A stretch of DNA of 64,000 nt from Candidatus Omnitrophota bacterium (lineage in GTDB: Bacteria; Omnitrophota; Gorgyraeia; JAHIPI01): positions 9,447 through 73,446 of the forward strand of contig JADHVZ010000001.1 of NCBI GenBank assembly GCA_016783745.1, written 5' to 3'. Below the pieces are notes generated by a model. It searched no databases. It was not told where the DNA came from and worked only from the letters and a program-made list of their open reading frames with translations. Each line of letters opens with the position of its first letter. Within the stretch, counting starts at the first letter, position 1. The translations under genes were made by a program, and so were the position numbers. This document shows positions 47,394 to 63,555 of this stretch, one piece after another.

Positions 47394-47483
47394 CTATAGC
47401 GGTCGGGCTCCGGGGCCAAAAAGTGAGGAATGGGCTTTTTGCCCCTTCGTCCTGCAGCAATGGAATAAGCGGGCAGGACTAGC

Positions 47484-47593
47484 GACCGAGCGCGAAATGC
47501 GCGAGGAAGTGCAGTGTTCAACTGAACGCTGCCGACCGAGCGCGAAATGCGCGAGGAAGTGCAGTGTTCAACTGAACGCTGCCGACCGAGCGC
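47484..47593. repeat. 50-bp tandem direct repeat x2.2 (GACCGAGCGCGAAATGCGCGAGGAAGTGCAGTGTTCAACTGAACGCTGCC)
   Basis: Two exact 50-bp units plus a 10-bp third start. Together with the 47596-47632 palindrome they lie inside 26-bp direct repeats at 47403-47428 and 47663-47689. Confidence 0.8.
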
Positions 47594-48707: not shown

Positions 48708-50195
48708 ATGAAGTTATTAAGGGGGCTATTTGTATTAGCTCTTGCAATAGCATTCACCATACCTGCACTCGCTGAAACGCAAAGCATCAAGCTAAGCGGC
48801 GATGTTATCGTCAGGCACATTATGCGTGACGATTATGACTTCAATAAGCATGATGATGATGTAGCTGACACAGACGCAAGCTATTTCATGCATAACGCCG
48901 AGATCCAGCTGGATGCCGATCTTACAGACAATGTTTCAGCGACTATCAGGGTGATGAATCAGACAGATTGGAACGTAAGCTATATTACAGAAGGAGCCAA
49001 TACCCACACAGACTATGATCCGCATGCCGTAGTCGGCGCCGGCGGCCTTGACGGCCCGCAGGATAACTACGGTGAGTTCGATGTCATAGTCGACCTCGCG
49101 TATGTGACTTTAAAGGAATTCTTTTTCACTCCTTTGACAGTCAGGATCGGTAAGCAGGATATATGGTTTGGTAAGGGTTTCATCATCGGCGGATTATTCG
49201 ATGACCCGAACGGCCAGATATCAGGTGATGAATGGTCAACCAATAATTCTTTCAAAGCCATAAGAGCGACTTGGGATTATGAGCCTTGGACAATTGACGG
49301 TGTGTTCGCGATGATAGAGGAAAACGAAGTCCAGGCAGATGACGACCAGCAGCTCTACGGTGTAAACGTTGGTATTGACCTGTCAGAATATAAAAATGCG
49401 GAAGTAGAAATGTACTACTGGTACATGATAGACGATGAAATACCGAACTTCATCACCAGCAAGGAAGACCGCATCCACGTCCTTGGTACGCGAGGCAGCT
49501 TTGATCCTCACGAAGACATCACTCTCTTTGGTGAACTCGCGTTACAGGGTGGCACGTACATAGCAAACGCAGTGCAGCCTGAGCCCAAGAAGAGAAATGC
49601 ATGGGCTTGTGATCTTGGCGCTGACCTCAGACTCTGGGAAGATGATTATGCCTGGAGGCCTGTATTCGGAGCCGAGTATATATTCTATTCCGGTAATAAT
49701 GAGCATAACACGACATTAGCCGGTGAGGACTTTAAGGGTTGGAACAGAATGTTCCGCGGAAAGTTAGACAGCGCGATCCACGATCATTATAACGTGTTCT
49801 ATACCGCTGGAATGCCCACAACGGAGAGAGCTGATACAAACCTGCATCAGTTTATCCTGAAGTGGGGTCTTCAGCCAATGGATAACCTTTCGGTTGACGG
49901 GAGATATATACATTTCCGTCTGCATGAAAACGCATGGGGGCCTTCAAACGCTGCCGGTACGATGGGCTATGGCGTACAGGAGAAAGGTGTCGGAAACGAA
50001 GTCGACATAGAGTGGACGTATGAATATACAGAAGACGTCACATTCGGTCTCTTAAGCGCGTGGTTCTGGTCCGGAGATTACTACTGGACTCCTGAAGATA
50101 CAGACAGCACAGCGGCTGTAGTTGCCGGAGCGAACTCTGGTAGTTCAAAGAGCGTTGCAAGAGAAGTTGTTGCTACTTGCAAAGTCTCGTTCTAG
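48708..50195 (+). CDS. Secreted putative outer-membrane beta-barrel protein (start at MKLLRG after GGAGG; the ORF track begins at 48693)
   Basis: Signal peptide (LAIAFTIPALA), an alternating hydrophobic pattern, an aromatic-rich sequence, and a terminal ...CKVSF with C-terminal Phe typical of OM beta-barrels. Confidence 0.45.
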   Translation: MKLLRGLFVLALAIAFTIPALAETQSIKLSGDVIVRHIMRDDYDFNKHDDDVADTDASYFMHNAEIQLDADLTDNVSATIRVMNQTDWNVSYITEGANTHTDYDPHAVVGAGGLDGPQDNYGEFDVIVDLAYVTLKEFFFTPLTVRIGKQDIWFGKGFIIGGLFDDPNGQISGDEWSTNNSFKAIRATWDYEPWTIDGVFAMIEENEVQADDDQQLYGVNVGIDLSEYKNAEVEMYYWYMIDDEIPNFITSKEDRIHVLGTRGSFDPHEDITLFGELALQGGTYIANAVQPEPKKRNAWACDLGADLRLWEDDYAWRPVFGAEYIFYSGNNEHNTTLAGEDFKGWNRMFRGKLDSAIHDHYNVFYTAGMPTTERADTNLHQFILKWGLQPMDNLSVDGRYIHFRLHENAWGPSNAAGTMGYGVQEKGVGNEVDIEWTYEYTEDVTFGLLSAWFWSGDYYWTPEDTDSTAAVVAGANSGSSKSVAREVVATCKVSF

Positions 50196-50213
50196 TTTAG
50201 TTTGATCTGAACG

Positions 50214-50260
50214 CAAAAAAGCCCGGCATTTCTAACGAAGTGCCGGGTTTTTTTGTTTTT
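50214..50260 (+). terminator. Rho-independent terminator (GCCCGGCA ... TGCCGGGC stem with T-run)
   Basis: AAAAAAGCCCGGCATTTCTAACGAAGTGCCGGGTTTTTTTGTTTTT sits directly after the OMP stop, with an A-run upstream and a T-run downstream. Confidence 0.75.
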
Positions 50261-50261
50261 C

Positions 50262-50290
50262 TTGACAACCATTTAGTAATTATGTATACT
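50262..50290 (+). promoter_or_regulatory. Sigma-70-like promoter TTGACA-17-TATACT
   Basis: Exact -35 hexamer and a near-consensus -10, about 40 nt upstream of the 50330 start. Confidence 0.45.
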
Positions 50291-50329
50291 TTACTAAAAT
50301 AAATCGATCAATAAAACCGGAGGTGAGGC

Positions 50330-50647
50330 ATGGCGGAGGATAAAGTAGTACAGGAAGGCAAGATATTCGCGGTAATCGGATACCTTGGTATCTTATGCCT
50401 TATACCTTTATTATTCAAGAAGGAGAACAAATTCGCCCTGTTCCACGGCAAACAAGGGCTGGTTATCTTTATAGGTGAGGTAGCCCTGGGCATTATAAGC
50501 GTAGTGCCGTTCCTGGGCTGGCTGGTGGGATTTTTCGGTGTTTTGATCTTCGGCATCCTTTCGCTAGTAGGTATTGTGCAGGTTTTAATGGGCAATTACT
50601 GGAGAGTGCCTTTAGTCGCTGATTTAGCCGATAAGTTTAATATATAG
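50330..50647 (+). CDS. DUF4870-like small membrane protein
   Basis: KFALFHGKQGL followed by two or three TM helices resembles the DUF4870 family. Confidence 0.45.
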   Translation: MAEDKVVQEGKIFAVIGYLGILCLIPLLFKKENKFALFHGKQGLVIFIGEVALGIISVVPFLGWLVGFFGVLIFGILSLVGIVQVLMGNYWRVPLVADLADKFNI

Positions 50648-50663
50648 TTTTGAGTATCTAACA

Positions 50664-50708
50664 ATAGGGGACAGACACTTTTAGACATAAAAGTGTCTGT
50701 CCCCTATT
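50664..50708. repeat. Simple hairpin copy of the palindromic element (AATAGGGGACAGACACTTTTAGACATAAAAGTGTCTGTCCCCTATT)
   Basis: Read directly: 19-bp perfect arms with a 7-nt loop, between the DUF4870 gene and the radical SAM gene. Confidence 0.8.
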
Positions 50709-50710
50709 CC

Positions 50711-51643
50711 ATGAAAATGAAAAAATCCAAAATAGACATTTACAAATCGATGAAGTTCTGTACTATTTGCCCCAGGAAGTGCGGGGTGGATAGGACTGCG
50801 GGTAAAAGCGGATTTTGTAAGGCCGGCAGCAAAATAGAGGTCTACTCTGCCGATCTCCATTTTGGGGAAGAGCCGCCGATCTCCGGCACCAATGGTTCCG
50901 GGGCCATCTTTTTTAATCACTGTAACCTGTCCTGCGCGTATTGCCAGAATTATAGATTCAGTCAATTGAAGGATGGTAAAGAGTTCGAAATAAGCTCATT
51001 TGTCGATCTGATGCTATCCCTTGAGAAGAAGGGAGCGCATAACATCAATCTCGTTACACCTACGCATTACGCTGTCCAGATCGCAAATGCCGTGATCGAG
51101 GCAAGACGTAACGGCCTGAAAGTGCCTATTGTATATAATTCAAGCGGCTATGAGAAGGTAGATGCCCTTAAGATGCTTGATGGGCTGGTTGATATATATT
51201 TAGTTGATATGCGCTATGCTGATGACGGACATGCGATGAAATACTCTTCCTGCGGTAACTACGTTGAATCAAATGAACAAGCCGTAAAGGAAATGTACAG
51301 GCAGGTCGGCACGCTAAAGCTATCCGGATCCGGCATAGCTGAGAAGGGCATAATAATAAGGCATCTTATATTGCCGAATGATATCAGCGGTTCCGAAAAG
51401 ATCTTCAGATTCATAGCGAATCAAGTCGATACCAACACCTATATATCACTCATGAGCCAATACTATCCTGCCAACAGGGCATCCACACACAGAGAGCTTA
51501 AGCGCGGCATAAATAAATCGGAATACGATAATGCAGTGCGCCTCCTATATAAGTATAACCTTAATCAAGGCTGGGTGCAGGAGTTCACGGGAGGCTTTGT
51601 TGATTCAGGCTTTGCAGGCACCAATATTGAACCCGATCTCTAA
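50711..51643 (+). CDS. Radical SAM enzyme, PflX/YjjW-like (pyruvate formate-lyase-activating-enzyme-related). Start placed after the hairpin.
   Basis: N-terminal CTICPRKCGVDRTAGKSGFCKAG, the radical SAM CNLSCAYCQN (CxxxCxxC), and a glycine-rich SAM-binding segment. The ORF-track start at 50693 would lie inside the hairpin. Confidence 0.65.
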   Translation: MKMKKSKIDIYKSMKFCTICPRKCGVDRTAGKSGFCKAGSKIEVYSADLHFGEEPPISGTNGSGAIFFNHCNLSCAYCQNYRFSQLKDGKEFEISSFVDLMLSLEKKGAHNINLVTPTHYAVQIANAVIEARRNGLKVPIVYNSSGYEKVDALKMLDGLVDIYLVDMRYADDGHAMKYSSCGNYVESNEQAVKEMYRQVGTLKLSGSGIAEKGIIIRHLILPNDISGSEKIFRFIANQVDTNTYISLMSQYYPANRASTHRELKRGINKSEYDNAVRLLYKYNLNQGWVQEFTGGFVDSGFAGTNIEPDL

Positions 51644-51669
51644 TCCCTTACGTATAAAATAAAATCCCA

Positions 51670-51878
51670 AATTCGCGCGAAGCACGAATTTGTCCTGAGA
51701 ATACGACAAAGAGGAGTATTCGAAGGGCCACAATTCGCGCGAAGCACGAATTTGTCCTGAGAATACGACAAAGAGGAGTATTCGAAGGGCCACAATTCGC
51801 GCGAAGCACGAATTTGTCCTGAGAATACGACAAAGAGGAGTATTCGAAGGGCCACAAATTTTTGCACGCTCGAATTTG
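51670..51878. repeat. 62-bp tandem repeat x3.3, each unit containing two short hairpins, degenerate last unit
   Basis: Units begin at about 51670, 51732 and 51794 and are identical. The fourth unit is diverged (CACAAATTTTTGCACGCTCGAATTTG). Each unit contains AATTCG..CGAATT and GAATAC..GTATTC inverted repeats. Confidence 0.85.
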
Positions 51879-52008
51879 ACTTTTTTTAAAATTGCAGGTA
51901 TACTTCATATTACCTTGTCATATCTTGTATTAATATATATAAAATATAACAATTCGTAGAAAACTATACTTGATTTATTTGAATCTTTGATAATATGGAG
52001 GTATAACG

Positions 52009-52212
52009 GTGAAGAATAGTGTGATGACTGTCCGCGAAGTTGCCAGGTACCTCAGGATGAAGCCGGTCACTATATATAAACATGCCCAGGAGGGCAAGTT
52101 GCCGGCTTTTAAGGTAGGTTCGTCATGGCGCTTCAAGAAAAAGACCATAGACGGATGGATCGCCGGACAGGAAAAGGAAGAACTCGAGAAATTGGATCTC
52201 GCGGTAAAATAA
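52009..52212 (+). CDS. Excisionase-family (Xis/AlpA-like, MerR-superfamily) HTH DNA-binding protein
   Basis: VREVARYLRMKPVTIYKHAQEGKLPAFKVGSSWRFKKKTIDGWI matches the excisionase-family DNA-binding domain signature (TIGR01764-like). Confidence 0.6.
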   Translation: MKNSVMTVREVARYLRMKPVTIYKHAQEGKLPAFKVGSSWRFKKKTIDGWIAGQEKEELEKLDLAVK

Positions 52213-52263
52213 TGCTGAGCTAAACAACTGCTCAGCTTTTTTACTTTCATACAAAGGTTTAAC

Positions 52264-53511
52264 ATGAGTAAACGTATAGTTATAACCGGGATAGGTGTAC
52301 TAGCCCCGAACGGAATAGGTAAGGATGAATTCTGGAACGCGTTGGAGCAGGCGAGATCCGGAATAAAGCCGGTTACATTATTCGATACATCCACTACAAG
52401 GTCAAAACTGGCCGGGGAGATATCAGATTTTGATCCTGTTCAGATCCTGGGAAAGAAAGGCCTGCGTACTCAGGATAGGAGTACAAAGCTGGTCAATTCC
52501 GCCGCGAAACTCGCGCTGGACGATGCCGGATTCGAATATCCGATACCTGAAGATGAAGCGGCTAAATTTGGCGTGGCCCTGGGCTCCACGATGGGAAGCG
52601 TATGGTCAATAAGTGAATTTGACAAAGTAGCGCTTCGTGAAGGACCGGGGGCGGTAAATCCGGCGCTGTTTTCCAATACAGTCATGAATTCTCCGGCAAG
52701 CCAGATCTCGATCAGATTTAACATAAAGGGCTTTAACGCGACCATCTCCACAGGTTTTACTTCCAGTGCAGACGCGATAAGCTACGCTTATAATCTTATG
52801 AGATTCTACGACTATAAAGTTGTTTTAGCGGGCGGAGTTGAGGAGCTATGTGAACAAACATTTAAGGGATTTCATAAAATAGGCCATTTAGCCGGTTCAA
52901 GAGGATCCAAACCGGAATTGAATTGCCCTTTTGACAAGAGGCGAAACGGTATTGTTGTTGGTGAAGGTTCTGCTATTTTTATTTTGGAGGATCTGGAACA
53001 TGCCCGATCAAGAGGAGCCAGAATATATGCTGAAATTTTAGGCTATGGTACATCTTTTGACGTGAAAAGCAGGAATATATATAACCCTAAAGCGGAGGGC
53101 GCGGCGGAAGCTATTAAATTTGCTTTAGAGGACTCAAAGACAAAACCGGAAGACATTGACTACATATCCGCAAGCGCGAATTCCACACTAGATTGCGATG
53201 TTATGGAGACAAGGGCCGTAAAAAAAGCGTGCGGCGAGCATGCGAAAGAGATACCGATAAGCAGCATTAAGAGTATGATAGGAGAGACTTTTTCGGCATC
53301 AGGCGCTATGAATGTTGCCGCAAGCCTTGGTGTATTTGAAAAACACTTTTTACCGCCGACGATAAATTATGAGAAGCCAGACAAGCGCTGTGACCTGGAT
53401 TTTGTGCCCAATAAGGCGCGAAGGAAAAATATTAATATAGCACTTGTTAATGCGTTTAGCCCTACGGGAAATAATACAACTTTAGTATTAGCAAGAAGCA
53501 AGGAGAATTAA
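52264..53511 (+). CDS. Ketosynthase-fold protein lacking the Cys-His-His catalytic triad (chain-length-factor / KS-beta-like)
   Basis: Thiolase/KAS fold throughout, but the active-site TACATG position reads STGFTSS, HGTGT reads SANSTL, and GHS/GHT reads GET. Confidence 0.7.
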   Translation: MSKRIVITGIGVLAPNGIGKDEFWNALEQARSGIKPVTLFDTSTTRSKLAGEISDFDPVQILGKKGLRTQDRSTKLVNSAAKLALDDAGFEYPIPEDEAAKFGVALGSTMGSVWSISEFDKVALREGPGAVNPALFSNTVMNSPASQISIRFNIKGFNATISTGFTSSADAISYAYNLMRFYDYKVVLAGGVEELCEQTFKGFHKIGHLAGSRGSKPELNCPFDKRRNGIVVGEGSAIFILEDLEHARSRGARIYAEILGYGTSFDVKSRNIYNPKAEGAAEAIKFALEDSKTKPEDIDYISASANSTLDCDVMETRAVKKACGEHAKEIPISSIKSMIGETFSASGAMNVAASLGVFEKHFLPPTINYEKPDKRCDLDFVPNKARRKNINIALVNAFSPTGNNTTLVLARSKEN

Positions 53512-53512
53512 T

Positions 53513-54256
53513 ATGCTGTTAAAAGATAAGGTAGCGATAATAAGCGGCGGATCAAGGGGCATAGGCAGGGCCGTGGCGCTGGAACTGGCAAATGAGGGAG
53601 CCGATATAGCTTTCAATTATCTAAAGAGCGAAGACAGGGCTCTTGAAGTTAAGAAGGAAATAGAATCAAAGGGAAGAAAAGCGCTTATCTTTAAGTCTGA
53701 CGTGAAGAACTTAGCTCAAATGAAGAATATGGTGAACGAGACGAAAGAGAAATTTGGTAGACTGGATATTATTGTGAACAACGCGGGGATATTACGGGAT
53801 AAAGCATTAATGCTGATGGGGGTAGAGGACTGGGAGGATGTTATTTCAACCAATTTATCCGGCGCTTTTAACCTTATAAAAGCCGCAATAGTCACGTTAA
53901 TGAAGGAAAAACAGGGTAATATCATTAATATAACATCAGTAGCCGGAATAAAAGGCATGCCGAGACAGGTAAATTATTCTGCCAGTAAAGCGGGACTGGT
54001 GGGCATGACCAAGGCTTTAGCTAAGGAAGTTGCCTCGTATAATATAAGGGTGAATGCCATAGCGCCGGGTTATATAGATACCGACATGGTAGGCGGATTG
54101 AAGGAAAACCATAAAACAGAGTTAATGAAAAGGATCCCCTTAAATAGATTTGGGACCCCTGATGAGGTAGCAAAGGTAGTGACTTTTTTAGCATCAGAAC
54201 GATCTAAATATATAACAGGGCAAGTAATATCAATTGATGGCGGATTGGCCATATAA
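53513..54256 (+). CDS. fabG: 3-oxoacyl-ACP reductase (FabG-type SDR ketoreductase)
   Basis: Cofactor motif GGSRGIGRA, NNAG, and catalytic S...YSASKAG (YxxxK). Confidence 0.8.
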   Translation: MLLKDKVAIISGGSRGIGRAVALELANEGADIAFNYLKSEDRALEVKKEIESKGRKALIFKSDVKNLAQMKNMVNETKEKFGRLDIIVNNAGILRDKALMLMGVEDWEDVISTNLSGAFNLIKAAIVTLMKEKQGNIINITSVAGIKGMPRQVNYSASKAGLVGMTKALAKEVASYNIRVNAIAPGYIDTDMVGGLKENHKTELMKRIPLNRFGTPDEVAKVVTFLASERSKYITGQVISIDGGLAI

Positions 54257-54269
54257 ACGGAGGTATAGT

Positions 54270-54521
54270 ATGCCTGAAATCTACTCCGAAACTTTAGAAA
54301 AAGATCTGCGGGCTATAGTTGCCGATATTGTCGAGATCGACGAGGGGAATATTACATCTGAGGCTAACTTCGTGGAAGATCTGGGGATGGATTCTATGAT
54401 GGCCCTGGAGATCCTGGCTACTGTGGAGAAAAAGTATAAGCTTAAGATCCCCGAAGAAAATCTTACAAAGATGACAAGCTTAAAGCAAGTAGTCGAGCTT
54501 GTTAACGGTTTGTTAAAATAA
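54270..54521 (+). CDS. Acyl carrier protein (start at MPEIY after GGAGG; the ORF track starts at 54234, overlapping fabG)
   Basis: Phosphopantetheine attachment motif DLGMDSMMALEI (the DSL/DSM Ser). Confidence 0.75.
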   Translation: MPEIYSETLEKDLRAIVADIVEIDEGNITSEANFVEDLGMDSMMALEILATVEKKYKLKIPEENLTKMTSLKQVVELVNGLLK

Positions 54522-54535
54522 AAAGTTAAAATATT

Positions 54536-55756
54536 ATGAATAAGCGTGTAGTAATAACCGGATTGGGAGTTATATCATCGATTGGAATCGGCAAAGAGGA
54601 TTTCTGGAATAATCTTATTGCCGGGAAATCCGGCATAAGCGATGTGACGACTTTCGATACCTCTAAATATGATAACCACAAAGGCGGCGAAGTAAAAGAT
54701 TTTAATCCATCAGATTTTATTTCTCGTAAGCATATAGCTGAGATGGGAAGGGCATCACAATTTGCAGTTGCAGCTTCGCAATTAGCACTTGATGATGCCA
54801 AGATGCACACCTTAGAAGCAAAAAAGGCTCGAGCCGGGGTGATAGTTGGCACAACCATGGCAGATGCTCAGGCCATAGAACAAATAGACAAGTATTGGAT
54901 TGATAAAAGTGAAGATGAAGTATGGGCAACAAATATTGTTAAATATCCAAGCAATGTTATAGCCGATAATGTAGGATACTATTTGGGGACACAGGGACCA
55001 AATTATGTGCTTCCTAATGCTTGTGCTGCAGGTAATTATTCTATAGGTTATTCTTTTGATCTTATAAGAGCTGGAAAGACTACCATTATGCTGGCTGGTG
55101 GTTCTGAGCAATTTTCAAGAATTACTTTTACTGGATTTAGCCGTCTATTTGCGATGTCTCCTGATCGGTGTCAACCCTTTGACAAGAATCGAAAGGGCAT
55201 GATTGTAGGCGAGGGAGCTGGCATATTGGTTTTAGAGGAATTAGAGCATGCAAAGAGAAGGGGTGCTACAATGCATGCCGAAGTACTGGGATACGGGTTA
55301 AGCTGCGATGCCCACCATATGACTGCGCCAAGTGTAAAAGGCATAACTTCGGTTTTGGAAAATGCTATGAAATTTTCAGATATAAGAAAAAATGATGTTG
55401 AATTTATCTGTACACATGGTACTGGGACTCCCGCCAATGATAGGGCTGAATGCCATGCCATGAAAAATGTTTTTGGAGAAAAATTCAAAGAGATTCCTGT
55501 AAATTCAATAAAGTCTATGCTTGGCCATACCATGGGAGCAGCAAGTGCGATAGAGTCAATAAGTACAATTTTGGCAATAAAAAATGGTATCATTCCACCA
55601 ACGATAAATTATGAGATATCCGATCCTGAGTGTGAGTCAGTCGACTGCGTAGCAAATGAAGCTCGTGTGAAAAAAATAAAAATAGCGCTAAATAATGCTT
55701 TAGCTTTCGGCGGCAATAACGCATGCATAGTTTTTAAAAAAATACAAAATTTATAA
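54536..55756 (+). CDS. Beta-ketoacyl-ACP synthase (active KS, FabF/KS-alpha-like)
   Basis: Catalytic Cys in PNACAAGN, His in THGTGTPANDRAE, and Lys/His in NSIKSMLGHTMGAAS. Confidence 0.8.
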   Translation: MNKRVVITGLGVISSIGIGKEDFWNNLIAGKSGISDVTTFDTSKYDNHKGGEVKDFNPSDFISRKHIAEMGRASQFAVAASQLALDDAKMHTLEAKKARAGVIVGTTMADAQAIEQIDKYWIDKSEDEVWATNIVKYPSNVIADNVGYYLGTQGPNYVLPNACAAGNYSIGYSFDLIRAGKTTIMLAGGSEQFSRITFTGFSRLFAMSPDRCQPFDKNRKGMIVGEGAGILVLEELEHAKRRGATMHAEVLGYGLSCDAHHMTAPSVKGITSVLENAMKFSDIRKNDVEFICTHGTGTPANDRAECHAMKNVFGEKFKEIPVNSIKSMLGHTMGAASAIESISTILAIKNGIIPPTINYEISDPECESVDCVANEARVKKIKIALNNALAFGGNNACIVFKKIQNL

Positions 55757-55757
55757 A

Positions 55758-56879
55758 ATGCCTAAATTTGCTTTTATAGCCCATCCCATAACGACAGAAC
55801 ATCTATATGAAATTTACAGCGGTTTTGCTGGTAAAATACTATCTTTTTTCCCGAAAAATATGCTTAAAGAATTATTGCTTAGACTTCCGCCTGTTAGTTT
55901 TGGAGTATGTAAAAATGTAAAATCATCAGAAGGAAAAACTATAGAAGGAGAAGGATTCCTTTTTCTTTTATTGCCAGAGCAGATAGCGATGCTCGACGAG
56001 AAATTTGTTCTAGACAAGATAGCCGCCACTATTAAAAAAGCCAAAGAGTCAGGTGCGCAGATTGCCGCGCTGGGCGGTTTCGCATCGGTAGTTGGTAATG
56101 AAGGAGAGAAGTTAGCCAAGCAAGTTAATGGTATAGCGATTACAAGCGGTAACACATGTACAGCAGCCTTGACTATACAAGGCATTCTTAAAGCAGCTTT
56201 AATTTTAGATGTGAAAATAGAAAATACTCATATGACAGTTATAGGAGCAACAGGTGATATAGGTAGTATTTGCTCAAAGATTTTTGCCAAAAAAGTAAAA
56301 AAATTAAATATAGTAGCAAGAAGGCAGGATCGATTATCCAATTTTGCTAACGCATTAAGAAGGAGTGGAAGCGCAGAAGTAGAGCTATTTAAACGTACAT
56401 CCGATGCCATAAAAGGCGTTGATATTATTCTGAGCACGACTAGTTCATTGACAACTTTGATCGAACCAGAATATTTAAAACCTGGAGCAATTGTTTGCGA
56501 TGTTTCTTTGCCTGCAAATATTCCCAAGGAAATAGTAAATATAAGGAAGGATATATTGGTATTTGAGGGTGGCCTGGCGAAATTGCCTTATTCAAAGGAG
56601 ATCAAAGGCAAAAATTGGAACAGATTACTGCCTGGTGATAGGACGTATGGTTGCTTGGCAGAGGCAATGCTTTTGTCGTTTGAGAATAGACTGGAGAACT
56701 ATTCGATTGCAAGGGGAAATATAACTGAAGAAAATATACAAGAAATATGTGGCTTATTAAAAAAACATTCTTTTGAAGTATCCGATTTTTTCTGTGGGTA
56801 TAAGTTTTTCACAGAAAAGGACTTGGAAGAGATAAAGAAATGTAAAGTGAAGGGAAATAATTATGCAGGGGTCCTTTAA
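55758..56879 (+). CDS. Acyl-ACP reductase (AAR) homolog, the fatty-aldehyde-forming long-chain acyl-[ACP] reductase family
   Basis: Collinear matches to cyanobacterial AAR from memory: FAFIAHP (FGLIGHL), AALGGFASVVG (SALGGFTSII), TSGNTCTA (TTGNTHTA), VIGATGDIGS (VVGATGDIGS), ARRQDRL (ARNQERL), and the catalytic-Cys region YGCLAEAMLLSFE (FACFAEAMLLEFE). Confidence 0.6.
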   Translation: MPKFAFIAHPITTEHLYEIYSGFAGKILSFFPKNMLKELLLRLPPVSFGVCKNVKSSEGKTIEGEGFLFLLLPEQIAMLDEKFVLDKIAATIKKAKESGAQIAALGGFASVVGNEGEKLAKQVNGIAITSGNTCTAALTIQGILKAALILDVKIENTHMTVIGATGDIGSICSKIFAKKVKKLNIVARRQDRLSNFANALRRSGSAEVELFKRTSDAIKGVDIILSTTSSLTTLIEPEYLKPGAIVCDVSLPANIPKEIVNIRKDILVFEGGLAKLPYSKEIKGKNWNRLLPGDRTYGCLAEAMLLSFENRLENYSIARGNITEENIQEICGLLKKHSFEVSDFFCGYKFFTEKDLEEIKKCKVKGNNYAGVL

Positions 56880-59004
56880 TCCATTTTTCATTCCATCCTT
56901 TATTGCATCGCTATTACTACTTTTTTTGGGAGTGTTTGTTTATTCGAGGAATAAAAAATCGTTAGTTAATGTTTTATTCTCGTTAGAATGTTTCGTGTCT
57001 TTTATATGGCAGTTTTGCTATGCTATGATGTATTTATTTTCCAATGATGAACAGCTAGCAGCATTTTGGATGAAAATAGGTTATGTGGGCGTAATCTACA
57101 TTTCAGTTTTTTATTACCATTTTATTATAGAATTTTTTGAAAGAAAGAAGGAAAGGATCATTGTCTATATTTCATACGGCATTGCTACCGTATTTGTTTT
57201 TTTTCATCTTACAACCAATTTGTTTACAAACGGAGTAATAAAATATTTTTGGGGGTACTATCCACGAGCATCTGTCATACATCCGTTTTTTTTGGTGTTT
57301 TTTATAGGTCTAATATGTTTAATCATAACTCATTCATTTATGGGGTTCTTGAATAGAGAGAAACTTTTTCACGATAGGAGAAAAGAGCAGGTCAAATATC
57401 TTTTTTGGGCATATTTTTTGTACGCACCAGCTTGTGTCGACTATATAGCAAATTATAATATTACGTTCTATCCGTTTGGCTACGTATTTTCAACAGCGTT
57501 TCTTGGTATTATCGCTTATGCTATTGTCAAACATCAACTTATGAATATTGAAGTCATTATACGCCGCGCGGTCGTGTTTACAGGATTATTTGCCGCGGCA
57601 TACGGAGTATTTGCTTTCTTTACATCACTGACTCAAGATGTGTTTCAGAATATTACCGGTGGAAATAGATGGGCGGTGTTTGTTCCTTCTATATTGCTAA
57701 TTGTGTTGGCATTGCGGCCACTGGAGAATTTTTTGGTCAGGATAACAGACAGGTTCCTATTTCAGAAAAAATATGATTATAGAGAATTACTACGCGCTCT
57801 TTCGCACGAAGTCATAACTATTATGGATCTCAACAAACTTACGAAGAGGATCGTTGATGATCTCGTAAATATAATGAGGGTTGAGAGCTGCGCTATCATG
57901 TTGTATGACAAGAATAAAGATGTTTATGATATTATTGCGGCCAGGGGGATAAAGGGCGGAAGTATATCATTCTCAAGGGATAACCAGACCATCACATTTC
58001 TTAAGACAGCTCATTTACCTATCAAGAAAAATGAGCACATTGACAAGATGGGTGAGAAGGGAACTATAAAGGAGGACATGAAGAAACTTGGCGCTGAATT
58101 TATCTTGCCTCTTATAGTGCATGATGAGCTCTTAGGCCTCATCAGCCTGGGCATGAAAAAGTCAGGAGAGGAATACAACCAGGACGATATTGCTATATTG
58201 GAATCTCTGACAGGGACAGCGTCGATCGCTATTAGTAACGCTCAGTATGTTGTCAATACTATGGAGCTTGAAGCGGAGGCGGCGCAAAGAGAGAAGATGG
58301 CCGTTGTCGGTACTCTGGCGGCAGGAATAAATCATGAGATATGTAATCCTTTAGGAATAGCGAGGGGGCAGTGCGAAGTCTACATATTAAATCAGAGAGA
58401 AGGGCTGTATGTCAATAAGCCCAAGGATGAGCAGATCGCCGAAGCCATGAAAGTCATGGAAAAAGTATTGCGTGAAACTGACAGGGCAACCGCGATCACT
58501 AAGAAGCTTTCAAGCTTTGCCAAACCGTCTAAAGGTGAGATATCGGAAAATGTTAAAATAGAGGAAGAGCTGGAAGAGGTCATAGCTTTGGTGGATCACG
58601 AGCTTAAACTGGGAAAGATAGATCTGAACTTGAATGTCCCGGATGATCTACCTCCTATAAGGTGTGACCGTAAACAATTACAGCAAGTATTATTTAACAT
58701 CATAAGAAACGCGGGCCAGGCCATAGGCGGCAAAGGAACGATTACTGTAGACATCAAGACCATTGAAGATAAGATCAGAATTCACATAAAGGACACAGGT
58801 CACGGTATATCTAAGGATAAGCTATCCGAGATCTTCAATCCATTCTATACTACTAAAGACCCGGGCAAGGGTACCGGCCTCGGGCTTTTTATAGTGCGTC
58901 AGCTTGTGGAAAGGAATAAGGGCAGGATCATAGTAGGCAGTGAAGTCGGAAAAGGCACCACATTTACATTGGAATTTCCGGCTACAGAGAGGGTGAAGTT
59001 ATGA
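56863..59004 (+). CDS. Membrane sensor histidine kinase (N-terminal 7TM sensor, GAF, HisKA, HATPase)
   Basis: Seven hydrophobic helices in the first ~230 aa, a GAF-like middle, H-box AAGINHEICNPLG, and N/G boxes (DTGHGISKD, GKGTGLGLFIV). It overlaps the AAR gene end by 17 nt. Confidence 0.75.
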   Translation: MQGSFNPFFIPSFIASLLLLFLGVFVYSRNKKSLVNVLFSLECFVSFIWQFCYAMMYLFSNDEQLAAFWMKIGYVGVIYISVFYYHFIIEFFERKKERIIVYISYGIATVFVFFHLTTNLFTNGVIKYFWGYYPRASVIHPFFLVFFIGLICLIITHSFMGFLNREKLFHDRRKEQVKYLFWAYFLYAPACVDYIANYNITFYPFGYVFSTAFLGIIAYAIVKHQLMNIEVIIRRAVVFTGLFAAAYGVFAFFTSLTQDVFQNITGGNRWAVFVPSILLIVLALRPLENFLVRITDRFLFQKKYDYRELLRALSHEVITIMDLNKLTKRIVDDLVNIMRVESCAIMLYDKNKDVYDIIAARGIKGGSISFSRDNQTITFLKTAHLPIKKNEHIDKMGEKGTIKEDMKKLGAEFILPLIVHDELLGLISLGMKKSGEEYNQDDIAILESLTGTASIAISNAQYVVNTMELEAEAAQREKMAVVGTLAAGINHEICNPLGIARGQCEVYILNQREGLYVNKPKDEQIAEAMKVMEKVLRETDRATAITKKLSSFAKPSKGEISENVKIEEELEEVIALVDHELKLGKIDLNLNVPDDLPPIRCDRKQLQQVLFNIIRNAGQAIGGKGTITVDIKTIEDKIRIHIKDTGHGISKDKLSEIFNPFYTTKDPGKGTGLGLFIVRQLVERNKGRIIVGSEVGKGTTFTLEFPATERVKL

Positions 59005-59375
59005 AGAGGCCGAAGATATTGACTATAGACGATGAGATGGGTTTTGTTGATATGATAAAAAACTATTTTTCTCTGCGCGGATATGACGTATTCACAGCTC
59101 TGAGAGGCGCTGCCGGATTGTATATCATCGAACAGGAAAAGCCTGATGTGGTTTTAATCGATTTCAAGATGCCGGAAATAGACGGGGATCAGATCTTCCG
59201 GCAGATGAAGAAGATCCACCCTGAAGGAAAGGCTATTATGATAACCGCGTTCAGGGATGAGGGGGGGACTGAAAAGAGATTATTAAATATGGGGGTTTAC
59301 GCTTATTTTGAAAAACCGATCACATCCATGAAGGATCTTGAGGCAACGATAAAAAATGCGGTTACACAAAAATAG
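59001..59375 (+). CDS. Stand-alone receiver-domain response regulator
   Basis: ILTIDDE, VVLIDFKMP (Asp phospho-acceptor) and IMITAF. No output domain. Start overlaps the kinase stop. Confidence 0.7.
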   Translation: MKRPKILTIDDEMGFVDMIKNYFSLRGYDVFTALRGAAGLYIIEQEKPDVVLIDFKMPEIDGDQIFRQMKKIHPEGKAIMITAFRDEGGTEKRLLNMGVYAYFEKPITSMKDLEATIKNAVTQK

Positions 59376-59380
59376 AGGCG

Positions 59381-59767
59381 GTGATTAAAATGATCAAAGT
59401 TTTAGTGGTAGATGATGAGCAGGAGATATGTAATTTTGTAAGGGATTTTTTCAAGGAAAGAGGCATTGAGGTCATAACCGCCTTAAACGGGGAAGAAGCT
59501 CTTGAGATGATAAAGAACGAGGAAGAGCTTACAGTGCTTCTTGATATCAGGATGCCTAAAATGGGCGGTATGGAGGCGTTACGCCGCATAAAAAAAGAAA
59601 AACCGCGCTTCAAGGTGATCATGGTCACATGCATCGATGACATTGAGAAGATGGAAGAGGCTAAGAGATGCGGCGCCGAGGCTTACTTAACAAAACCTTT
59701 AGTCCTTAAAGAGCTGCTTAAAGTTGTCATGAATAATGTGCCGGGTAATGACAAGAGCGGAAAATGA
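59381..59767 (+). CDS. Stand-alone receiver-domain response regulator
   Basis: VLVVDDE, VLLDIRMPKMGG and IMVT. No output domain. Confidence 0.7.
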   Translation: MIKMIKVLVVDDEQEICNFVRDFFKERGIEVITALNGEEALEMIKNEEELTVLLDIRMPKMGGMEALRRIKKEKPRFKVIMVTCIDDIEKMEEAKRCGAEAYLTKPLVLKELLKVVMNNVPGNDKSGK

Positions 59768-61101
59768 AGAAGGATAAGAAAAATAAAAATAATTGGAAAG
59801 AAATACAGAATCAGCTTATCAAAAAATGCCTGGATGTCAAGCCGCATTTTACGCCTTCCGGCCGCTTGAAGACCACAGATAAGCTCAATTACAGGGAGGT
59901 GATCGAGAAGGCGTCGCGAAGCATGATCCGCTTTAAGAAACCTACGCGCCTTATACGCATGATAGTGCGCATAATAGCTGAGCAGGTAAGGGTTCTTCAT
60001 ACAGGGGTCTTATTATATAGAGAAAAGAATAATTCCTATGTCCTTATAGACAGCAAAGGTGAGGAAGGGAAGAGGCTTCCCATCGGATATGTAAGACTAC
60101 CTTTAGATAGTCCGCTGATAACCGCATTTATGGAAAAAAAGTCATTTTTGATAGACTCACACGGCGCGCTTCTTCTCGAAAAGATAACGAAAACGCTTAA
60201 TGACGCGGATTTATTGAAAAAACAGATGGGGATGGAGCACAAGATCAAGAGATTAAAGTCTGAAATGGATATATTACGTTCTGAAGTCTGTATCCCGGCA
60301 TACTACAAAAGAAAGTTACTTGGAATATTAATTCTGGGGCCGAAGCTTTCCGGAGAAAAATATAATGATGATGAGATAGGCTTTTTCGCTACTTTAGCGA
60401 ATGACGTGGCGATGGCGATCACGAATTCCCAGCTTATAACAAGCCTTCAATCAAAAGTAAAAGAGATAGGTGTCCTTTATGAAAAGGAAAGACGGCTTTT
60501 TATCCACACCTCAATAGCCCTGGCCGCCGCAATCGACGCGAGAGACCCGTATACTCACGGTCATACGTCGCGTGTTACCCACTATTCTCTTAAAATAGCG
60601 GATGAGCTAAAGCAGGCTCCTGAAATAATGGATTATGAGAATTTCAGGGAGACGCTTCACATAGCGTCTCTTCTGCATGATATCGGTAAAATAGGGGTGC
60701 GGGACAATATACTGAATAAAGCCGATGCGCTTACCGGCGAGGAATACATAGAAGTCAAAAAGCACGCGGACATCGGCGCTGCCATATTAAGCCCGATAAA
60801 AGAACTGGGCGGTATCATAGAGATTGTCAGGGCCCATCATGAAAGATTTGACGGCACCGGATATCCTGGCGGCTTAGAGGCGGATGAGATCCCGTTTCCT
60901 TCGCGGATAATCTCCGTAGCGGATGTTTTTGACACGGTAACCACAGACCGTCCTTATAGAAAGAAAATACCGGACGCGGATGCCGTAAAAGAAATCGAGA
61001 AAAATTCAGGAACACAGTTTGATCCGCTGGTCGTACAGGCATTTGTCGATGCGTACAATAGGGGGAAGGAATTTTTAAACCCGACTTATTCCGGCTACTG
61101 A
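59764..61101 (+). CDS. GAF plus HD-GYP domain protein (putative c-di-GMP phosphodiesterase)
   Basis: HD motif LHDIGKIGV and HHERFDGTGYPGG (the GYP signature). The N-terminal half is GAF-like. Confidence 0.75.
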   Translation: MKKDKKNKNNWKEIQNQLIKKCLDVKPHFTPSGRLKTTDKLNYREVIEKASRSMIRFKKPTRLIRMIVRIIAEQVRVLHTGVLLYREKNNSYVLIDSKGEEGKRLPIGYVRLPLDSPLITAFMEKKSFLIDSHGALLLEKITKTLNDADLLKKQMGMEHKIKRLKSEMDILRSEVCIPAYYKRKLLGILILGPKLSGEKYNDDEIGFFATLANDVAMAITNSQLITSLQSKVKEIGVLYEKERRLFIHTSIALAAAIDARDPYTHGHTSRVTHYSLKIADELKQAPEIMDYENFRETLHIASLLHDIGKIGVRDNILNKADALTGEEYIEVKKHADIGAAILSPIKELGGIIEIVRAHHERFDGTGYPGGLEADEIPFPSRIISVADVFDTVTTDRPYRKKIPDADAVKEIEKNSGTQFDPLVVQAFVDAYNRGKEFLNPTYSGY

Positions 61102-61188
61102 CAATAATTAAAGATTGACTTAACCCGGCATTGGATGTATATTTATCGTAAAATCATCCTATTATAATAAAATACGGAGGAGATAATA

Positions 61189-61344
61189 ATGAATTTATTA
61201 TACAAAAGATCGTTAGCGGTTGTTTTTTTGATGATCATGCTGCTTCAGCTTTCCGGCTGCGGAGAGACCCTTCGGGGCGTAGGCAAGGATTGGGGCAGAG
61301 TAGGCAAAGGCGTTAAAACAATATTTGTCAGAGATAGCGAATAG
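61189..61344 (+). CDS. Entericidin-like small lipoprotein (51 aa; below the ORF-track length cutoff)
   Basis: GGAGG RBS 8 nt upstream. MNLLYKRSLAVVFLMIMLLQLSGCGETLRGVGKDWGRVGKGVKTIF matches the EcnA/EcnB pattern (lipobox C, then G.G.D....G). Confidence 0.45.
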   Translation: MNLLYKRSLAVVFLMIMLLQLSGCGETLRGVGKDWGRVGKGVKTIFVRDSE

Positions 61345-61369
61345 ACTTTTACTGTCGAAGAGGTGCTAG

Positions 61370-62152
61370 TTGTCAATACATCCCACCGCAGTAATAGATC
61401 CCGGAGCAGAGATAGCCAGCGACGTGGAAGTGGGGCCCTACACAGTTATCGAAGATAACGTAAAGATAGGACCGCGTGTCAAGATCTGGGCTAATGCCTA
61501 CATATGCAGATATACTGAGATAGGCGAAGACACCCAGGTACATATGGGCGCTGTTATAGGGCACTTGCCGCAGGATATTTCATTTAAAGATAAGAAAAGC
61601 GGGCTCCTCATAGGAAAGCGGAATGTGATCCGTGAATATTCGACCATCCACAGAGGTACGCATGAGGCCACTACTACACTGATCGGTGACGATAATTTTT
61701 TCATGGCGTTTGCTCACATTGGCCATAATTGTGTTCTGGGCAATAATATTGTGATGGTAAACGGCGCTACGCTGGGCGGGTATGTTCATGTGGGTGATAA
61801 AGCGTTTTTGTCCGCGTATGCTGTTGTGCAGCAATTTACCAGAATAGGAGGGCTTTGCATAATAGCGGCTAACTCGCGGGTCACTAAGGATGTACCGCCG
61901 TATATGCTGGCAAAAGGGGAGGATTGCAAAATATACGGCCTGAATGTCGTCGGACTAAGAAGGTCTGATTTCTCGCAGGAGACGCGGAATAAGATAAAGA
62001 AGGCGCATAAGATCCTCTATCTTTCCGGTTATAGATTAACCCAGGCGATAGAGGAAATTGAGAAAGCGGGCCTCGGTGAAGAGGTCCGGATTTTAATAGA
62101 TTTTCTGAAAGGTGATTCAAAAAGGGGTATTACGGCTAATATAAAAAGGTAA
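61370..62152 (+). CDS. lpxA: UDP-N-acetylglucosamine O-acyltransferase
   Basis: IHPTAVIDPGAEIASDVEVGPYTVIEDNVKIG hexapeptide repeats and C-terminal helical domain. Probable TTG start. Confidence 0.75.
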   Translation: MSIHPTAVIDPGAEIASDVEVGPYTVIEDNVKIGPRVKIWANAYICRYTEIGEDTQVHMGAVIGHLPQDISFKDKKSGLLIGKRNVIREYSTIHRGTHEATTTLIGDDNFFMAFAHIGHNCVLGNNIVMVNGATLGGYVHVGDKAFLSAYAVVQQFTRIGGLCIIAANSRVTKDVPPYMLAKGEDCKIYGLNVVGLRRSDFSQETRNKIKKAHKILYLSGYRLTQAIEEIEKAGLGEEVRILIDFLKGDSKRGITANIKR

Positions 62153-62737: not shown

Positions 62738-62887
62738 CTCCTTATTTCATATTTCATTAGTCTGATTTTGGTATATATTATATCATATAAATTTCATATT
62801 ACTGTTATTTCTCTTGAAAAAAACTCATTTACAGTATATATTATACTATGCTTTAATAGATGATATAAGTGACCCGAATGGAGATAT

Positions 62888-63553: not shown

Positions 63554-63555
63554 GT

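Follow-up and report, generated by a model that had tools for sequence, protein, structure and literature searches.

A conserved operon of Candidatus Omnitrophota combining an anammox-type ketosynthase pair, a predicted thioester reductase and a putative cyclic di-GMP module

We have analysed a stretch of 64,000 nucleotides from a Candidatus Omnitrophota bacterium (GenBank assembly GCA_016783745.1, contig JADHVZ010000001.1, positions 9,447 to 73,446), hereafter the window, in which the region 52009–61101 is a chromosomal operon typical of Candidatus Omnitrophota. Its genes encode a helix-turn-helix (HTH) protein, an active and a dead ketosynthase (KS), a ketoreductase (KR), an acyl carrier protein (ACP), a reductase of the wider family of cyanobacterial acyl-ACP reductase (AAR) and, at the 3′ end, a sensor histidine kinase, two response regulators and an HD-GYP protein. 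We favour, with a probability of about one half, the reading that this operon provides a chain-length-gated acyl-ACP line with reductive release of the product as an aldehyde and coupling to cyclic di-GMP (c-di-GMP), as a branch of primary lipid metabolism.

A preliminary description had covered positions 52009–56879 and named six genes there, five of them forming a compact, co-directional and minimally spaced cluster headed by the HTH gene. All six open reading frames (ORFs) were found on the plus strand where it had placed them, and from the dead KS to the AAR-like gene the intergenic gaps are 1, 13, 14 and 1 nt in that order. Every gene proved to be as named, but the operon had been followed only in part: the tightly packed run of genes extends beyond 56879 to 61101, taking in the kinase, both response regulators and, as the last gene, that of the HD-GYP protein.

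The ketosynthase pair, the ketoreductase and the carrier protein

The genes of the operon are as follows (REC, receiver domain).

52009..52212, plus strand: HTH_17/excisionase-family DNA-binding protein, 67 aa (PF12728, 58.6 bits; TIGR01764, 52.4 bits)
52264..53511, plus strand: dead ketosynthase of amxFabFmut type, triad Phe/Ser/Glu (PF00109, PF02801, alignment)
53513..54256, plus strand: FabG-type 3-oxoacyl-ACP reductase (TIGR01830)
54270..54521, plus strand: dedicated ACP, 83 aa (PF00550; alternative start 54234)
54536..55756, plus strand: active ketosynthase of amxFabF2 type (C163/H294/H331; PF00109, PF02801)
55758..56879, plus strand: predicted NAD(P)H-dependent thioester reductase of the AAR/PigE-N family (NCBIfam, PDB and fold matches)
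56863..59004, plus strand: sensor histidine kinase, 7TM-GAF-HisKA-HATPase (Pfam HisKA_7TM, GAF_2, HATPase_c)
59001..59375, plus strand: single-domain response regulator, REC only (PF00072; overlaps the kinase stop by 4 nt)
59390..59767, plus strand: second single-domain response regulator (PF00072; alternative GTG start 59381)
59764..61101, plus strand: GAF-HD-GYP protein, predicted c-di-GMP phosphodiesterase (PF13487 HD_5, 124 bits; PF01966; GAF)

Both KS proteins are full-length and contain PF00109 and PF02801. In a MAFFT alignment the 54536 protein shows the triad Cys163/His294/His331 and the 52264 protein has Phe, Ser and Glu at the same columns; this bears out the earlier division into one dead and one fully active KS, no Cys/His/His triad having come to light in the 52264 protein on proper alignment. 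What the preliminary description had missed is the kinship of both KS proteins, and of the ACP, to Cluster I of anammox bacteria, which is apparent from PDB scores, sequence identities and a tree. The active KS matches chain 9s5h_B best (482 bits), followed by Iga11 (6kxd, 327 bits), and the dead KS matches 9s5h_C best (380 bits, the best canonical FabF reaching 276 bits), so that for each of the two the anammox chains outscore any canonical FabF or polyketide synthase (PKS) KS by about 100–150 bits. The 54536 protein is 53.3% identical to amxFabF2 and the 52264 protein 48.9% identical to Brocadia amxFabFmut, as compared with 33–38% for the cross pairs. In a neighbour-joining tree, midpoint-rooted and without bootstrap support, every dead KS grouped with amxFabFmut and every cluster KS with amxFabF2, and the more canonical FabF-like proteins of those loci lay apart from both groups. 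The active KS passes the FabF subfamily model NF005589 (418 against a cutoff of 387) and fails TIGR03150 (429 against 494).

A preprint of the Barends group from May 2026 (10.64898/2026.05.19.726425) reports crystal structures in which the amxFabF2/amxFabFmut heterodimer of Brocadia fulgida is seen both on its own and together with substrate-loaded ACP. According to the same preprint, the two proteins form a heterodimer resembling that of a KS and a chain-length factor (CLF), malonyl-ACP is decarboxylated only with both subunits, and C6–C8 probes react faster than C16, a preference on which Phe135 and Val139 in the dead subunit have an effect. We take PDB entries 9S5H and 9S5I to be these structures; a text search for the code 9S5H returned nothing relevant in the literature, and neither code occurs in any text searched. 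By analogy, the 52264 and 54536 proteins would form a KS/CLF-like heterodimer, an idea already put forward in the preliminary description and to which the solved structure of the closest homologues lends support.

The features that distinguish the dead subunit are strongly conserved. Among its 120 best Omnitrophota homologues (120 sequence clusters, 68–83% identical to the window protein, those with names being labelled Omnitrophica or Omnitrophota), the Cys site is Phe in all 120, the first His is replaced by a small residue and the second by Glu or Asp. The tunnel residues equivalent to Phe135 and Val139 of B. fulgida amxFabFmut are likewise present in the window protein and in 120/120 of these homologues. 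An amxFabF2-clade KS accompanies the dead KS in 14 of the 15 loci that have the latter and sufficient flanking sequence. Another dead paralogue from Kuenenia, Kuste2805, likewise has Phe at position 163 (Rattray et al., 2009). By comparison with the anammox pair, chain length would be gated by the dead subunit, and the conserved Phe and Val make short or medium chains possible products.

The 53513 protein exceeds the cutoff of the FabG model TIGR01830 (313.5 against 297.75 bits), and the GGSRGIG and YSASK motifs are visible in its translation. The 54270 protein, 83 aa long from the ATG chosen by the gene callers, contains PF00550 (PP-binding) and the DSM phosphopantetheine-attachment motif; the FabG-like ketoreductase and the dedicated ACP of the preliminary description are confirmed by these matches. 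The three best PDB matches of the ACP, 7qv0_D (66 bits), 7auf_A and 9s5i_E, are all amxACP entries, 7QV0 being the amxFabZ–amxACP complex, and place it among carriers of the amxACP type. Canonical ACPs reach 44–49 bits, and the protein remains below the AcpP equivalog cutoff (57.5 against 70.45).

The terminal reductase and the proposed acyl line

The 55758 protein is a member of the wider AAR/PigE-N thioester-reductase family and not an AAR equivalog, because profile, sequence and fold matches all lead to this family and yet the score stays below the AAR cutoff. Its best curated match in NCBIfam is the PigE profile (positions 1–356, 176 bits, E 1e-51), and the AAR model TIGR04058 recognises it at 124.8 bits (E 5e-36), short of the equivalog cutoff of 449.7. 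PDB sequences of PigE (4ppm) and AAR (6jzq) are matched over nearly the full length. The motif GATGDIGS aligns with the nucleotide motif of AAR, and Cys299 aligns with the AAR cysteine that was mutated by the depositors of PDB 6jzz, titled ‘AAR-C294S’; both Cys299 and the glycine-rich motif G163–S170 are invariant in 20 reductase homologues of 46–63% identity. An AlphaFold2 model (mean pLDDT 87.4) finds its best fold match in cyanobacterial AAR 6jzq (TM-score 0.77–0.84, 26% identity) and its second in the NAD(H)-binding ‘TAD’ domain of the carmabin pathway. The preliminary description had spoken of a clear homologue of cyanobacterial AAR; family, fold, cysteine and motif are in keeping with that view and AAR-family models do recognise the protein, but the equivalog cutoff was missed.

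From these resemblances the 55758 protein is predicted to turn an acyl-ACP into an aldehyde with NAD(P)H. Reduction of a thioester to an aldehyde has been proposed, with in vitro support, for PigE's N-terminal domain (PMC8341465). Acyl-ACP is the implied substrate here because ACP and KS genes adjoin; in the related locus L088 (L numbers denote loci of the comparative scan described below), an ACP gene lies directly 5′ of the reductase gene and no KS is present. We found no paper on an AAR homologue in Omnitrophota, on its fusion forms or on its link to a kinase.

Another role for this protein, as an unconventional enoyl-ACP reductase or as a dehydrogenase of the amino-acid or shikimate type, seems to us very improbable. 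In its favour, none of the clusters having KS, KR and dehydratase shows a recognisable enoyl reductase, database names include ‘shikimate dehydrogenase’ and ‘predicted amino acid dehydrogenase’, and Pfam returns generic Rossmann families only. These labels have nevertheless to be set against the full-length profile and fold matches to AAR/PigE-N, since shikimate and amino-acid dehydrogenases match the model through the Rossmann domain only (TM-score 0.3–0.4), against the invariance of the cysteine of covalent catalysis, and against the chemistry of the known family members, since AAR and PigE-N, as well as the more distant GluTR, all form aldehydes by reduction of activated acyl esters. A cyanobacterial-type alkane pathway, in which AAR is followed by an aldehyde-deformylating oxygenase (ADO), would rest solely on the resemblance of the reductase to AAR, and its probability is close to nil. 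No ADO was found in the window annotation, the neighbour families that are conserved in the 80 loci compared below do not include one, and the reductase fails the equivalog cutoff, which effectively refutes such a pathway at 52009–56879.

Taken together, the genes suggest the following course of events. The active and the dead KS would pair as a KS/CLF-like heterodimer after the manner of their anammox homologues, prime themselves by decarboxylation of malonyl-ACP and elongate the chain on the amxACP-type carrier encoded at 54270, with FabG (53513) reducing the β-keto group in every round. Dehydration and enoyl reduction would presumably be supplied in trans in this genome, since genes for both steps are lacking in the window; in relatives the cluster includes an amxFabZ-like dehydratase and flavin oxidoreductases. 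The dead subunit would then restrict chain length through its tunnel, the conserved Phe and Val of which match the amxFabFmut residues that affect preference, and the 55758 reductase would take the acyl chain onto Cys299 and reduce it with NAD(P)H to a fatty aldehyde. The window holds no in-cluster enzyme for further conversion of this aldehyde. In relatives, neighbouring GMC or short-chain dehydrogenase/reductase (SDR) oxidoreductases and PlsC could process it to an alcohol or a lipid-bound form, and it is the addition there of these oxidoreductases, of a PlsC-type acyltransferase and of a lipid-binding SRPBCC domain that points to such an end product.

As noted in the preliminary description, the locus is devoid of ADO, dehydratase and enoyl reductase genes, and none was found within the window. 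A search by tblastn and by Pfam of the called genes revealed no dehydratase, enoyl reductase, PlsC-like or CrtI-like gene in the 64 kb, and neither a nitroreductase nor an SRPBCC domain was found on searching the window.

Conservation, signalling genes and genomic setting

The reductase alignment was compared with one genome per species, yielding 117 confirmed loci of which 80 were kept. Nearly all of the 80 are labelled Omnitrophota; some carry the labels ‘uncultured Planctomycetia’ or ‘Planctomycetales’ and two are assigned to Chloroflexota, and for two oddly labelled loci we suspect binning or labelling problems. Identical copies of the window proteins are present on metagenome contigs, and the dead KS of the window is on deposit as a protein of a Candidatus Omnitrophica metagenome-assembled genome (MAG).

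Three layouts could be distinguished. The first comprises 27 loci with a short reductase, which share one gene set but differ in its order. One order, with facultative members in brackets, is HTH, dead KS, reductase, KR, ACP, (amxFabZ-like protein), KS, (nitroreductase-like protein), (CrtI-like flavoprotein), kinase, two response regulators and HD-GYP; the other, that of the window, is dead KS, KR, ACP, (FabZ), KS, (flavoprotein), reductase and kinase. The FabZ-like protein of L023 has amxFabZ (7qv0_A) as its best PDB match, with 129 bits against 99 bits for canonical FabZ. In the second layout the module is joined to housekeeping genes of fatty acid and phospholipid synthesis, as ackA-rpmF-plsX-fabH-fabD-HTH-dead KS-KR-ACP-KS-reductase-GMC oxidoreductase in L089 and as plsX-fabH-fabD-FabZ-like-KS-reductase-kinase-response regulator-HD-GYP in L073. 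The genes of L073 recur in the same order in L020, L025, L078 and L085, with some gaps or one extra gene between; plsX, fabH and fabD lie within 10 kb in L012, L020, L025, L046, L073, L078 and L085, and fabH and fabD in L075. The operon of the window, unlike that of L089, stands outside any rpmF-plsX-fabH-fabD operon. The third layout, with a long reductase (53 loci), comprises HTH, (a divergent paralogue), a PlsC-type acyltransferase, an SRPBCC–reductase fusion, (a GMC oxidoreductase or an SDR with a fatty-acyl-reductase-type domain), kinase and response regulator; the fusion occurs in 53 loci, a PlsC-like acyltransferase gene lies directly 5′ of the reductase gene in 37, and FadL/TodX outer-membrane channels are encoded near several loci of this layout. 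The five biosynthetic genes are thus co-conserved in relatives, as the reading of the preliminary description demands, but their order varies. Neighbouring genes for a lipoyl ligase, a lipoyl domain, the tricarboxylic acid cycle and a helicase in some loci were judged to be lineage synteny and not parts of the module.

Two further observations concern these neighbourhoods. A divergent reductase paralogue (about 24–30% identity, no Pfam match at E 0.001) precedes the PlsC and SRPBCC–reductase pair in L027, L029, L031 (7860–8903, for example), L033, L039, L040, L044, L076 and L082. In L088, whose reductase is 63% identical to that of the window, the module of HTH, REC protein, ACP, reductase and kinase genes is immediately preceded on its 5′ side by an anti-phage system of the CBASS type with a patatin effector, a SMODS/DncV-like cyclase and E2-CBASS (60–3500).

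Given the fab/pls contexts and the degree to which the dead KS is conserved, the locus is best read as a branch of primary lipid metabolism and not as a secondary-metabolite island. The preliminary description had instead proposed a mobile, self-contained minimal type II PKS-like cluster making a β-hydroxy or polyketide-like aldehyde as a secondary metabolite, which we hold to be rather improbable. The lack of dehydratase and enoyl reductase genes in the window would fit it, as would the antiSMASH ‘ladderane’ calls, ‘of unknown function’, on similar regions of Omnitrophota MAGs (PMC9902471) and the inclusion of KS–CLF pairs from Ca. Omnitrophica in a catalogue of type II PKS CLFs (PMC10132072); it is only in bulk, through these calls and this catalogue, that the literature mentions the loci of the phylum. 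A stand-alone minimal PKS is, however, less likely than a fatty-acyl line completed in trans, because the genes of relatives lie in or near a housekeeping fab/pls operon, in some genomes inside rpmF-plsX-fabH-fabD itself, with a dehydratase and flavoenzymes. The gene set is moreover found across the phylum, KR and KS reach the NCBI FabG and FabF-subfamily cutoffs, no cyclase or aromatase family was detected by Pfam among the operon proteins, and the Gln that characterises aromatic PKS is missing from the CLF.

The idea of mobility drew further on the elements upstream of the dead KS gene, which are listed here.

51670..51857, no strand: 62-bp tandem repeat, 3.0 perfect copies (TRF, 100% matches; intergenic, 5′ of the HTH gene)
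51876..51904, plus strand: sigma-70-like promoter match TTGACT-17-TATACT (10/12 positions; 5′ of the HTH gene)
52214..52242, plus strand: terminator-like hairpin between the HTH and dead KS genes (fold −13 kcal/mol, z = −2.75)

The HTH protein does contain an excisionase-type domain (TIGR01764, 52.4 bits against a cutoff of 28.8; PF12728, 58.6 bits), as the preliminary description had seen, but its association with a mobile element could not be upheld. The Pfam annotations obtained for the window contain no integrase or transposase family, core genes make up the flanks, and an HTH_17 homologue leads the module in 39 of 75 informative loci; it is likely a transcriptional regulator of the module. 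The same flanks speak against an island-borne module altogether, with DnaE, HisRS, AspRS, PhoH, YbeY, RecO, a class II aminoacyl-tRNA synthetase, PPDK and sigma-70 encoded upstream in the window and LpxA and DNA polymerase X downstream of the operon; together with the lack of an integrase in these annotations and the conservation of the gene set across the phylum, they led us to reject the mobile-island reading.

Directly 3′ of the HTH gene, the hairpin has a 7-bp GC-rich stem, a 9-nt loop and a run of six T. A hairpin of unrelated sequence stands at the equivalent place in seven of eight related loci examined (L007, L008, L009, L010, L013, L014 and L016), followed by a T-run in most, and this recurrence indicates that the order of small regulator gene, terminator and biosynthetic genes is conserved. 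The sigma-70-like match is weak evidence, since promoter-like sites in the region are no more numerous than expected from shuffled sequence.

The 62-bp repeat that the preliminary description had called iteron-like is real, with three exact matches where none would be expected, and its unit folds into two hairpins (−21.3 kcal/mol for one unit). Its copy number is uncertain because other assemblies of the same genome (L001, L004, L086) break or are gapped inside it. An iteron or island-marker reading is not supported, there being no replication gene and similar perfect repeats occurring elsewhere in the window and in other Omnitrophota loci; in L007, the closest syntenic relative, about 160 nt separate the radical SAM gene from the HTH gene and the repeat is not conserved. 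A scan of 50000–64000 against Rfam gave only sub-threshold chance matches, and none for the repeat. A second perfect intergenic repeat, with a GC-rich palindromic core, consists of 2.2 copies of a 50-bp unit at 100% identity and separates the genes for a phosphoribosyltransferase and a PHP-domain protein (47483–47593), and L086 is gapped exactly there as it is at the 62-bp repeat. Hairpin-forming tandem repeats of 42–44 bp, related to one another with a consensus around AAGCCAGAGGGCAGTGGTGCGGCTTCC..., were seen in three other Omnitrophota loci (L042 587–671 and 1342–1473, L045 208–319, L049 7184–7271); two of the four arrays are perfect (L042 587–671 and L045 208–319), the others having 88% and 95% matches, and one lies directly 3′ of an HTH_17 gene. 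Such repeats may be a repeat class of the phylum Omnitrophota.

The AT-richness that had been described is borne out in part (40.9% GC for 52009–56879 against 44.0% for the window), but the drop is confined to the genes of the active KS (39.6% GC; 30.7% GC at third codon positions, GC3) and of the AAR-like reductase (36.8%, GC3 30.2%), the HTH, dead KS, KR and ACP genes having 42–48% GC and a GC3 of 42–60%. Compared with L007, the HTH, dead KS, KR and ACP proteins are 80–87% identical and the reductase, which is sited at a different position there, 53%. The low GC3 of the KS and reductase genes, which a mobile PKS cluster would also explain, and the low identity of the reductase to that of L007 suggest that a segment from another Omnitrophota lineage has taken the place of the original 3′ part of the biosynthetic block, which would make the operon a mosaic.

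At the 3′ end of the lipid genes, the kinase gene starts 17 nt before the end of the reductase gene, and 4-nt overlaps join it to the first response regulator gene and the second of these to the GAF-HD-GYP gene. Overlaps of this kind suggest that the biosynthetic genes are co-transcribed and translationally coupled with those of the kinase, the two response regulators and the HD-GYP protein. About 7–8 hydrophobic segments are found in residues 8–295 of the kinase. A kinase of the same family is encoded within 3 kb 3′ of the reductase in 46 of 57 informative loci, in all layouts, and starts less than 300 nt beyond the reductase stop in 34 of 69; the REC-only gene is conserved 3′ of it in relatives, and the GAF-HD-GYP gene keeps its position in 19 related loci. 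As kinase, response regulator and HD-GYP genes invariably stand at the 3′ end, we infer a functional tie between lipid synthesis and a membrane-embedded sensor with c-di-GMP turnover, in a direction that is likewise conjectural. In a Thermoflexales MAG of the Chloroflexota (L056, 5601–13299), a reductase homologue is surrounded by genes for DUF4388, a small GTPase resembling Ras/MglA, a hydrolase of the alpha/beta type, a V4R protein and a hexapeptide transferase; next in line come those for a REC-GGDEF protein and a periplasmic binding protein, so that c-di-GMP signalling is again adjacent, with no fatty acid synthesis genes.

This arrangement might also be read as that of a signal synthase and its cognate receptor, in which a short- or medium-chain fatty aldehyde or alcohol, diffusible or membrane-borne, would be sensed by the 7TM kinase and passed through the response regulators to HD-GYP, an architecture resembling DSF/Rpf or CqsA/CqsS; we regard this as possible, if somewhat unlikely. 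It would account for the placing of the kinase 3′ of the lipid genes however these are ordered among themselves (46/57 loci), for a multi-pass membrane sensor without a large periplasmic domain and for an output that consists of REC-only proteins and HD-GYP and includes no DNA-binding regulator. A homologue whose tunnel residues correspond to the conserved ones here prefers C6–C8, lengths below those of membrane lipids; FadL/TodX outer-membrane channels, which serve hydrophobic molecules, are encoded repeatedly nearby, and the Chloroflexota reductase homologue is followed by a REC-GGDEF protein. However, none of the known autoinducer synthases is homologous to these enzymes, bulk lipid synthesis is the better match for the fab/pls operon context and the PlsC neighbours, the dead KS is very strongly conserved (68–83% identity, 120 clusters) as a housekeeping component would be, and a kinase co-transcribed with lipid genes could equally sense the state of the membrane. 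We would put forward as an unlikely but specific proposal that a fatty aldehyde or alcohol of defined length made by the anammox-type KS/CLF/ACP line of Omnitrophota, either self-made or exchanged between cells, is the ligand of the 7TM kinase and thereby controls c-di-GMP through HD-GYP. If this were true, it would constitute a previously unknown lipid-signal synthase–receptor system, with the corollary that the ‘ladderane-specific’ Cluster I of anammox bacteria derived from a wider lipid module of the Planctomycetes–Verrucomicrobia–Chlamydiae (PVC) group by addition of the B12-radical-SAM enzyme.

Several points weigh against the acyl-ACP line of primary lipid metabolism that we prefer. The analysis covers a 64-kb window of this genome, and all functions assigned to the Omnitrophota proteins, whether catalytic activity, product or heterodimer formation, are predictions. 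The expectation on chain length depends on a crosslinking assay of a homologue with 49% identity. Given 125 against 450 bits and just 26% identity to AAR, the reductase could act on another thioester, and because the window is devoid of dehydratase and enoyl reductase genes the chemistry in this genome could stop at β-hydroxy or poly-hydroxy chains. Composition hints that the KS and reductase genes were recently replaced within the phylum. L023 and L024 also hold a second, more canonical fabG-acpP-fabF set, and in L012, a complete genome, the cluster lacks an active KS nearby.

Other features of the window deserve mention. The radical SAM protein encoded just 5′ of the 62-bp repeat and the HTH gene (50693–51643, plus strand) is small, activase/AmmeMemoRadiSam-like and without a B12 domain; it is syntenic in L007 (70% identity) and no conserved neighbour elsewhere. 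An LpxA-type acyltransferase gene (61370–62152, plus strand), whose product would use 3-hydroxyacyl-ACP, starts 270 nt 3′ of the HD-GYP gene and has its own promoter-like site at 61115–61143; this adjacency was not seen in L009. The DNA polymerase III alpha subunit gene (24447–29303, plus strand, 1618 aa) contains an intein with a LAGLIDADG homing-endonuclease domain (Pfam Intein_splicing, LAGLIDADG_3). In-frame coding repeats occur with a 102-bp period at 8987–9365, within a TPR protein gene (8848–10677, minus strand) whose product, on look-up, had no database record, and with a 36-bp period at 35582–35686, within an ORF without a Pfam match (35130–35948).

Comparison with known systems

Omnitrophota are mostly ultra-small, uncultured bacteria of the PVC group. 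The closest counterpart of the operon belongs to another phylum of this group, in Cluster I of anammox bacteria (KustE3603–3608), which comprises amxACP, amxFabZ, amxFabF2, amxFabFmut, a PDH homologue and a B12-radical-SAM enzyme. The active and the dead KS of the two systems are reciprocal best relatives (53% and 49% identity), both dead subunits have an acidic residue in place of the second His and keep the tunnel Phe and Val, the ACP of the window is closest to amxACP, and related Omnitrophota loci carry an amxFabZ-like dehydratase and a flavoprotein of the CrtI/amine-oxidase family. The differences are equally clear. The Omnitrophota cluster has no B12-radical-SAM gene; none lies in the operon, the upstream 50693–51643 gene matches core and activase-type models only, and no radical SAM family is found among the conserved neighbours. 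The window moreover lacks FabZ and PDH, and for these reasons we do not regard the locus as a ladderane cluster. FabG and the AAR-family reductase, present here, are not listed in published descriptions of Cluster I, the dead KS here has Phe at the Cys site where its anammox counterpart has Val or Thr, and the Omnitrophota cluster is joined to a histidine-kinase module and in places sits inside a housekeeping fab operon.

In the literature, Cluster I proteins are said to be confined to ladderane producers, and amxFabFmut is presented as the first case of a chain-length factor in a fatty-acid pathway (10.64898/2026.05.19.726425). Their presence across a different PVC phylum argues that individual ‘anammox-specific’ proteins are not so restricted; the pair of active and dead KS, the carrier and, in relatives, the dehydratase appear there as a standard and strongly conserved part of lipid metabolism. 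With Omnitrophota as a comparison set, a chain-building core common to both could be told apart from what is specific to ladderanes in Cluster I, which is probably the radical SAM chemistry. The locus also extends the AAR family beyond cyanobacteria and into fab operons, and discloses a conserved link of a lipid-releasing reductase with a membrane sensor kinase having c-di-GMP outputs, which could explain how envelope lipids are coupled to behaviour in host-associated nanobacteria. With functions that are predicted throughout, the value of the locus lies in the well-defined hypothesis that it provides.

The reductase shares with cyanobacterial AAR (TIGR04058; PDB 6JZQ/6JZU) the fold (TM-score 0.77–0.84), the nucleotide motif and the position of the catalytic Cys. 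It differs in its 26% identity, in a score of 125 bits against a cutoff of 450, in having no ADO partner and in its non-cyanobacterial origin, and most homologues of the phylum bear an N-terminal SRPBCC domain and are encoded next to kinases; the lack of ADO and the score below that of the equivalog set it apart from the cyanobacterial alkane pathway. The N-terminal thioester-reductase domain of PigE, from the MAP branch of prodigiosin synthesis (PMC8341465), provides the best curated model and a proposed conversion of thioester to aldehyde. The window protein is stand-alone, however, with no pyridoxal-phosphate (PLP) aminotransferase fused to it or encoded nearby, which argues that its aldehyde is not channelled to an amine. 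With the KS/CLF pairs of type II PKS (actinorhodin; Iga11/Iga12 of ishigamide) the operon has in common an active KS and an inactive paralogue that shapes the acyl tunnel. It departs from them in that the Cys site of the CLF holds Phe in place of Gln and cyclases or aromatases are missing, which sets the aromatic type II PKS aside, and in that KR and KS meet models of the fatty-acid-synthase type in a context of fatty-acid and phospholipid genes.

In myxobacterial ElbD, an enzyme of ether lipid synthesis, acyl activation, carrier, reductase and PlsC-type acyltransferase domains are united in one protein. A purely functional analogy exists in the loci with PlsC and an SRPBCC–reductase fusion, which likewise bring an acyl chain on a carrier together with a thioester reductase and an acyltransferase of the PlsC family. 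The reductase is, however, of AAR type and not the SDR-type terminal one, the proteins are separate, no ether-forming enzyme was identified and the window has no PlsC. ElbD homologues have been reported in 93 of 267 Omnitrophota MAGs. The diffusible signal factor (DSF)/Rpf system, composed of RpfF, RpfC and the HD-GYP regulator RpfG, and the parallel lipid-signalling system CqsA/CqsS offer an architectural analogy, with genes for a fatty-acid product beside those for a multi-pass membrane kinase and an HD-GYP output; their synthases are unrelated in sequence to the proteins described here, and the HD-GYP protein of the operon has a GAF domain and not a receiver domain. Considered against all these systems, the locus would work like the chain-building core of anammox Cluster I combined with reductive release of the AAR/PigE type.

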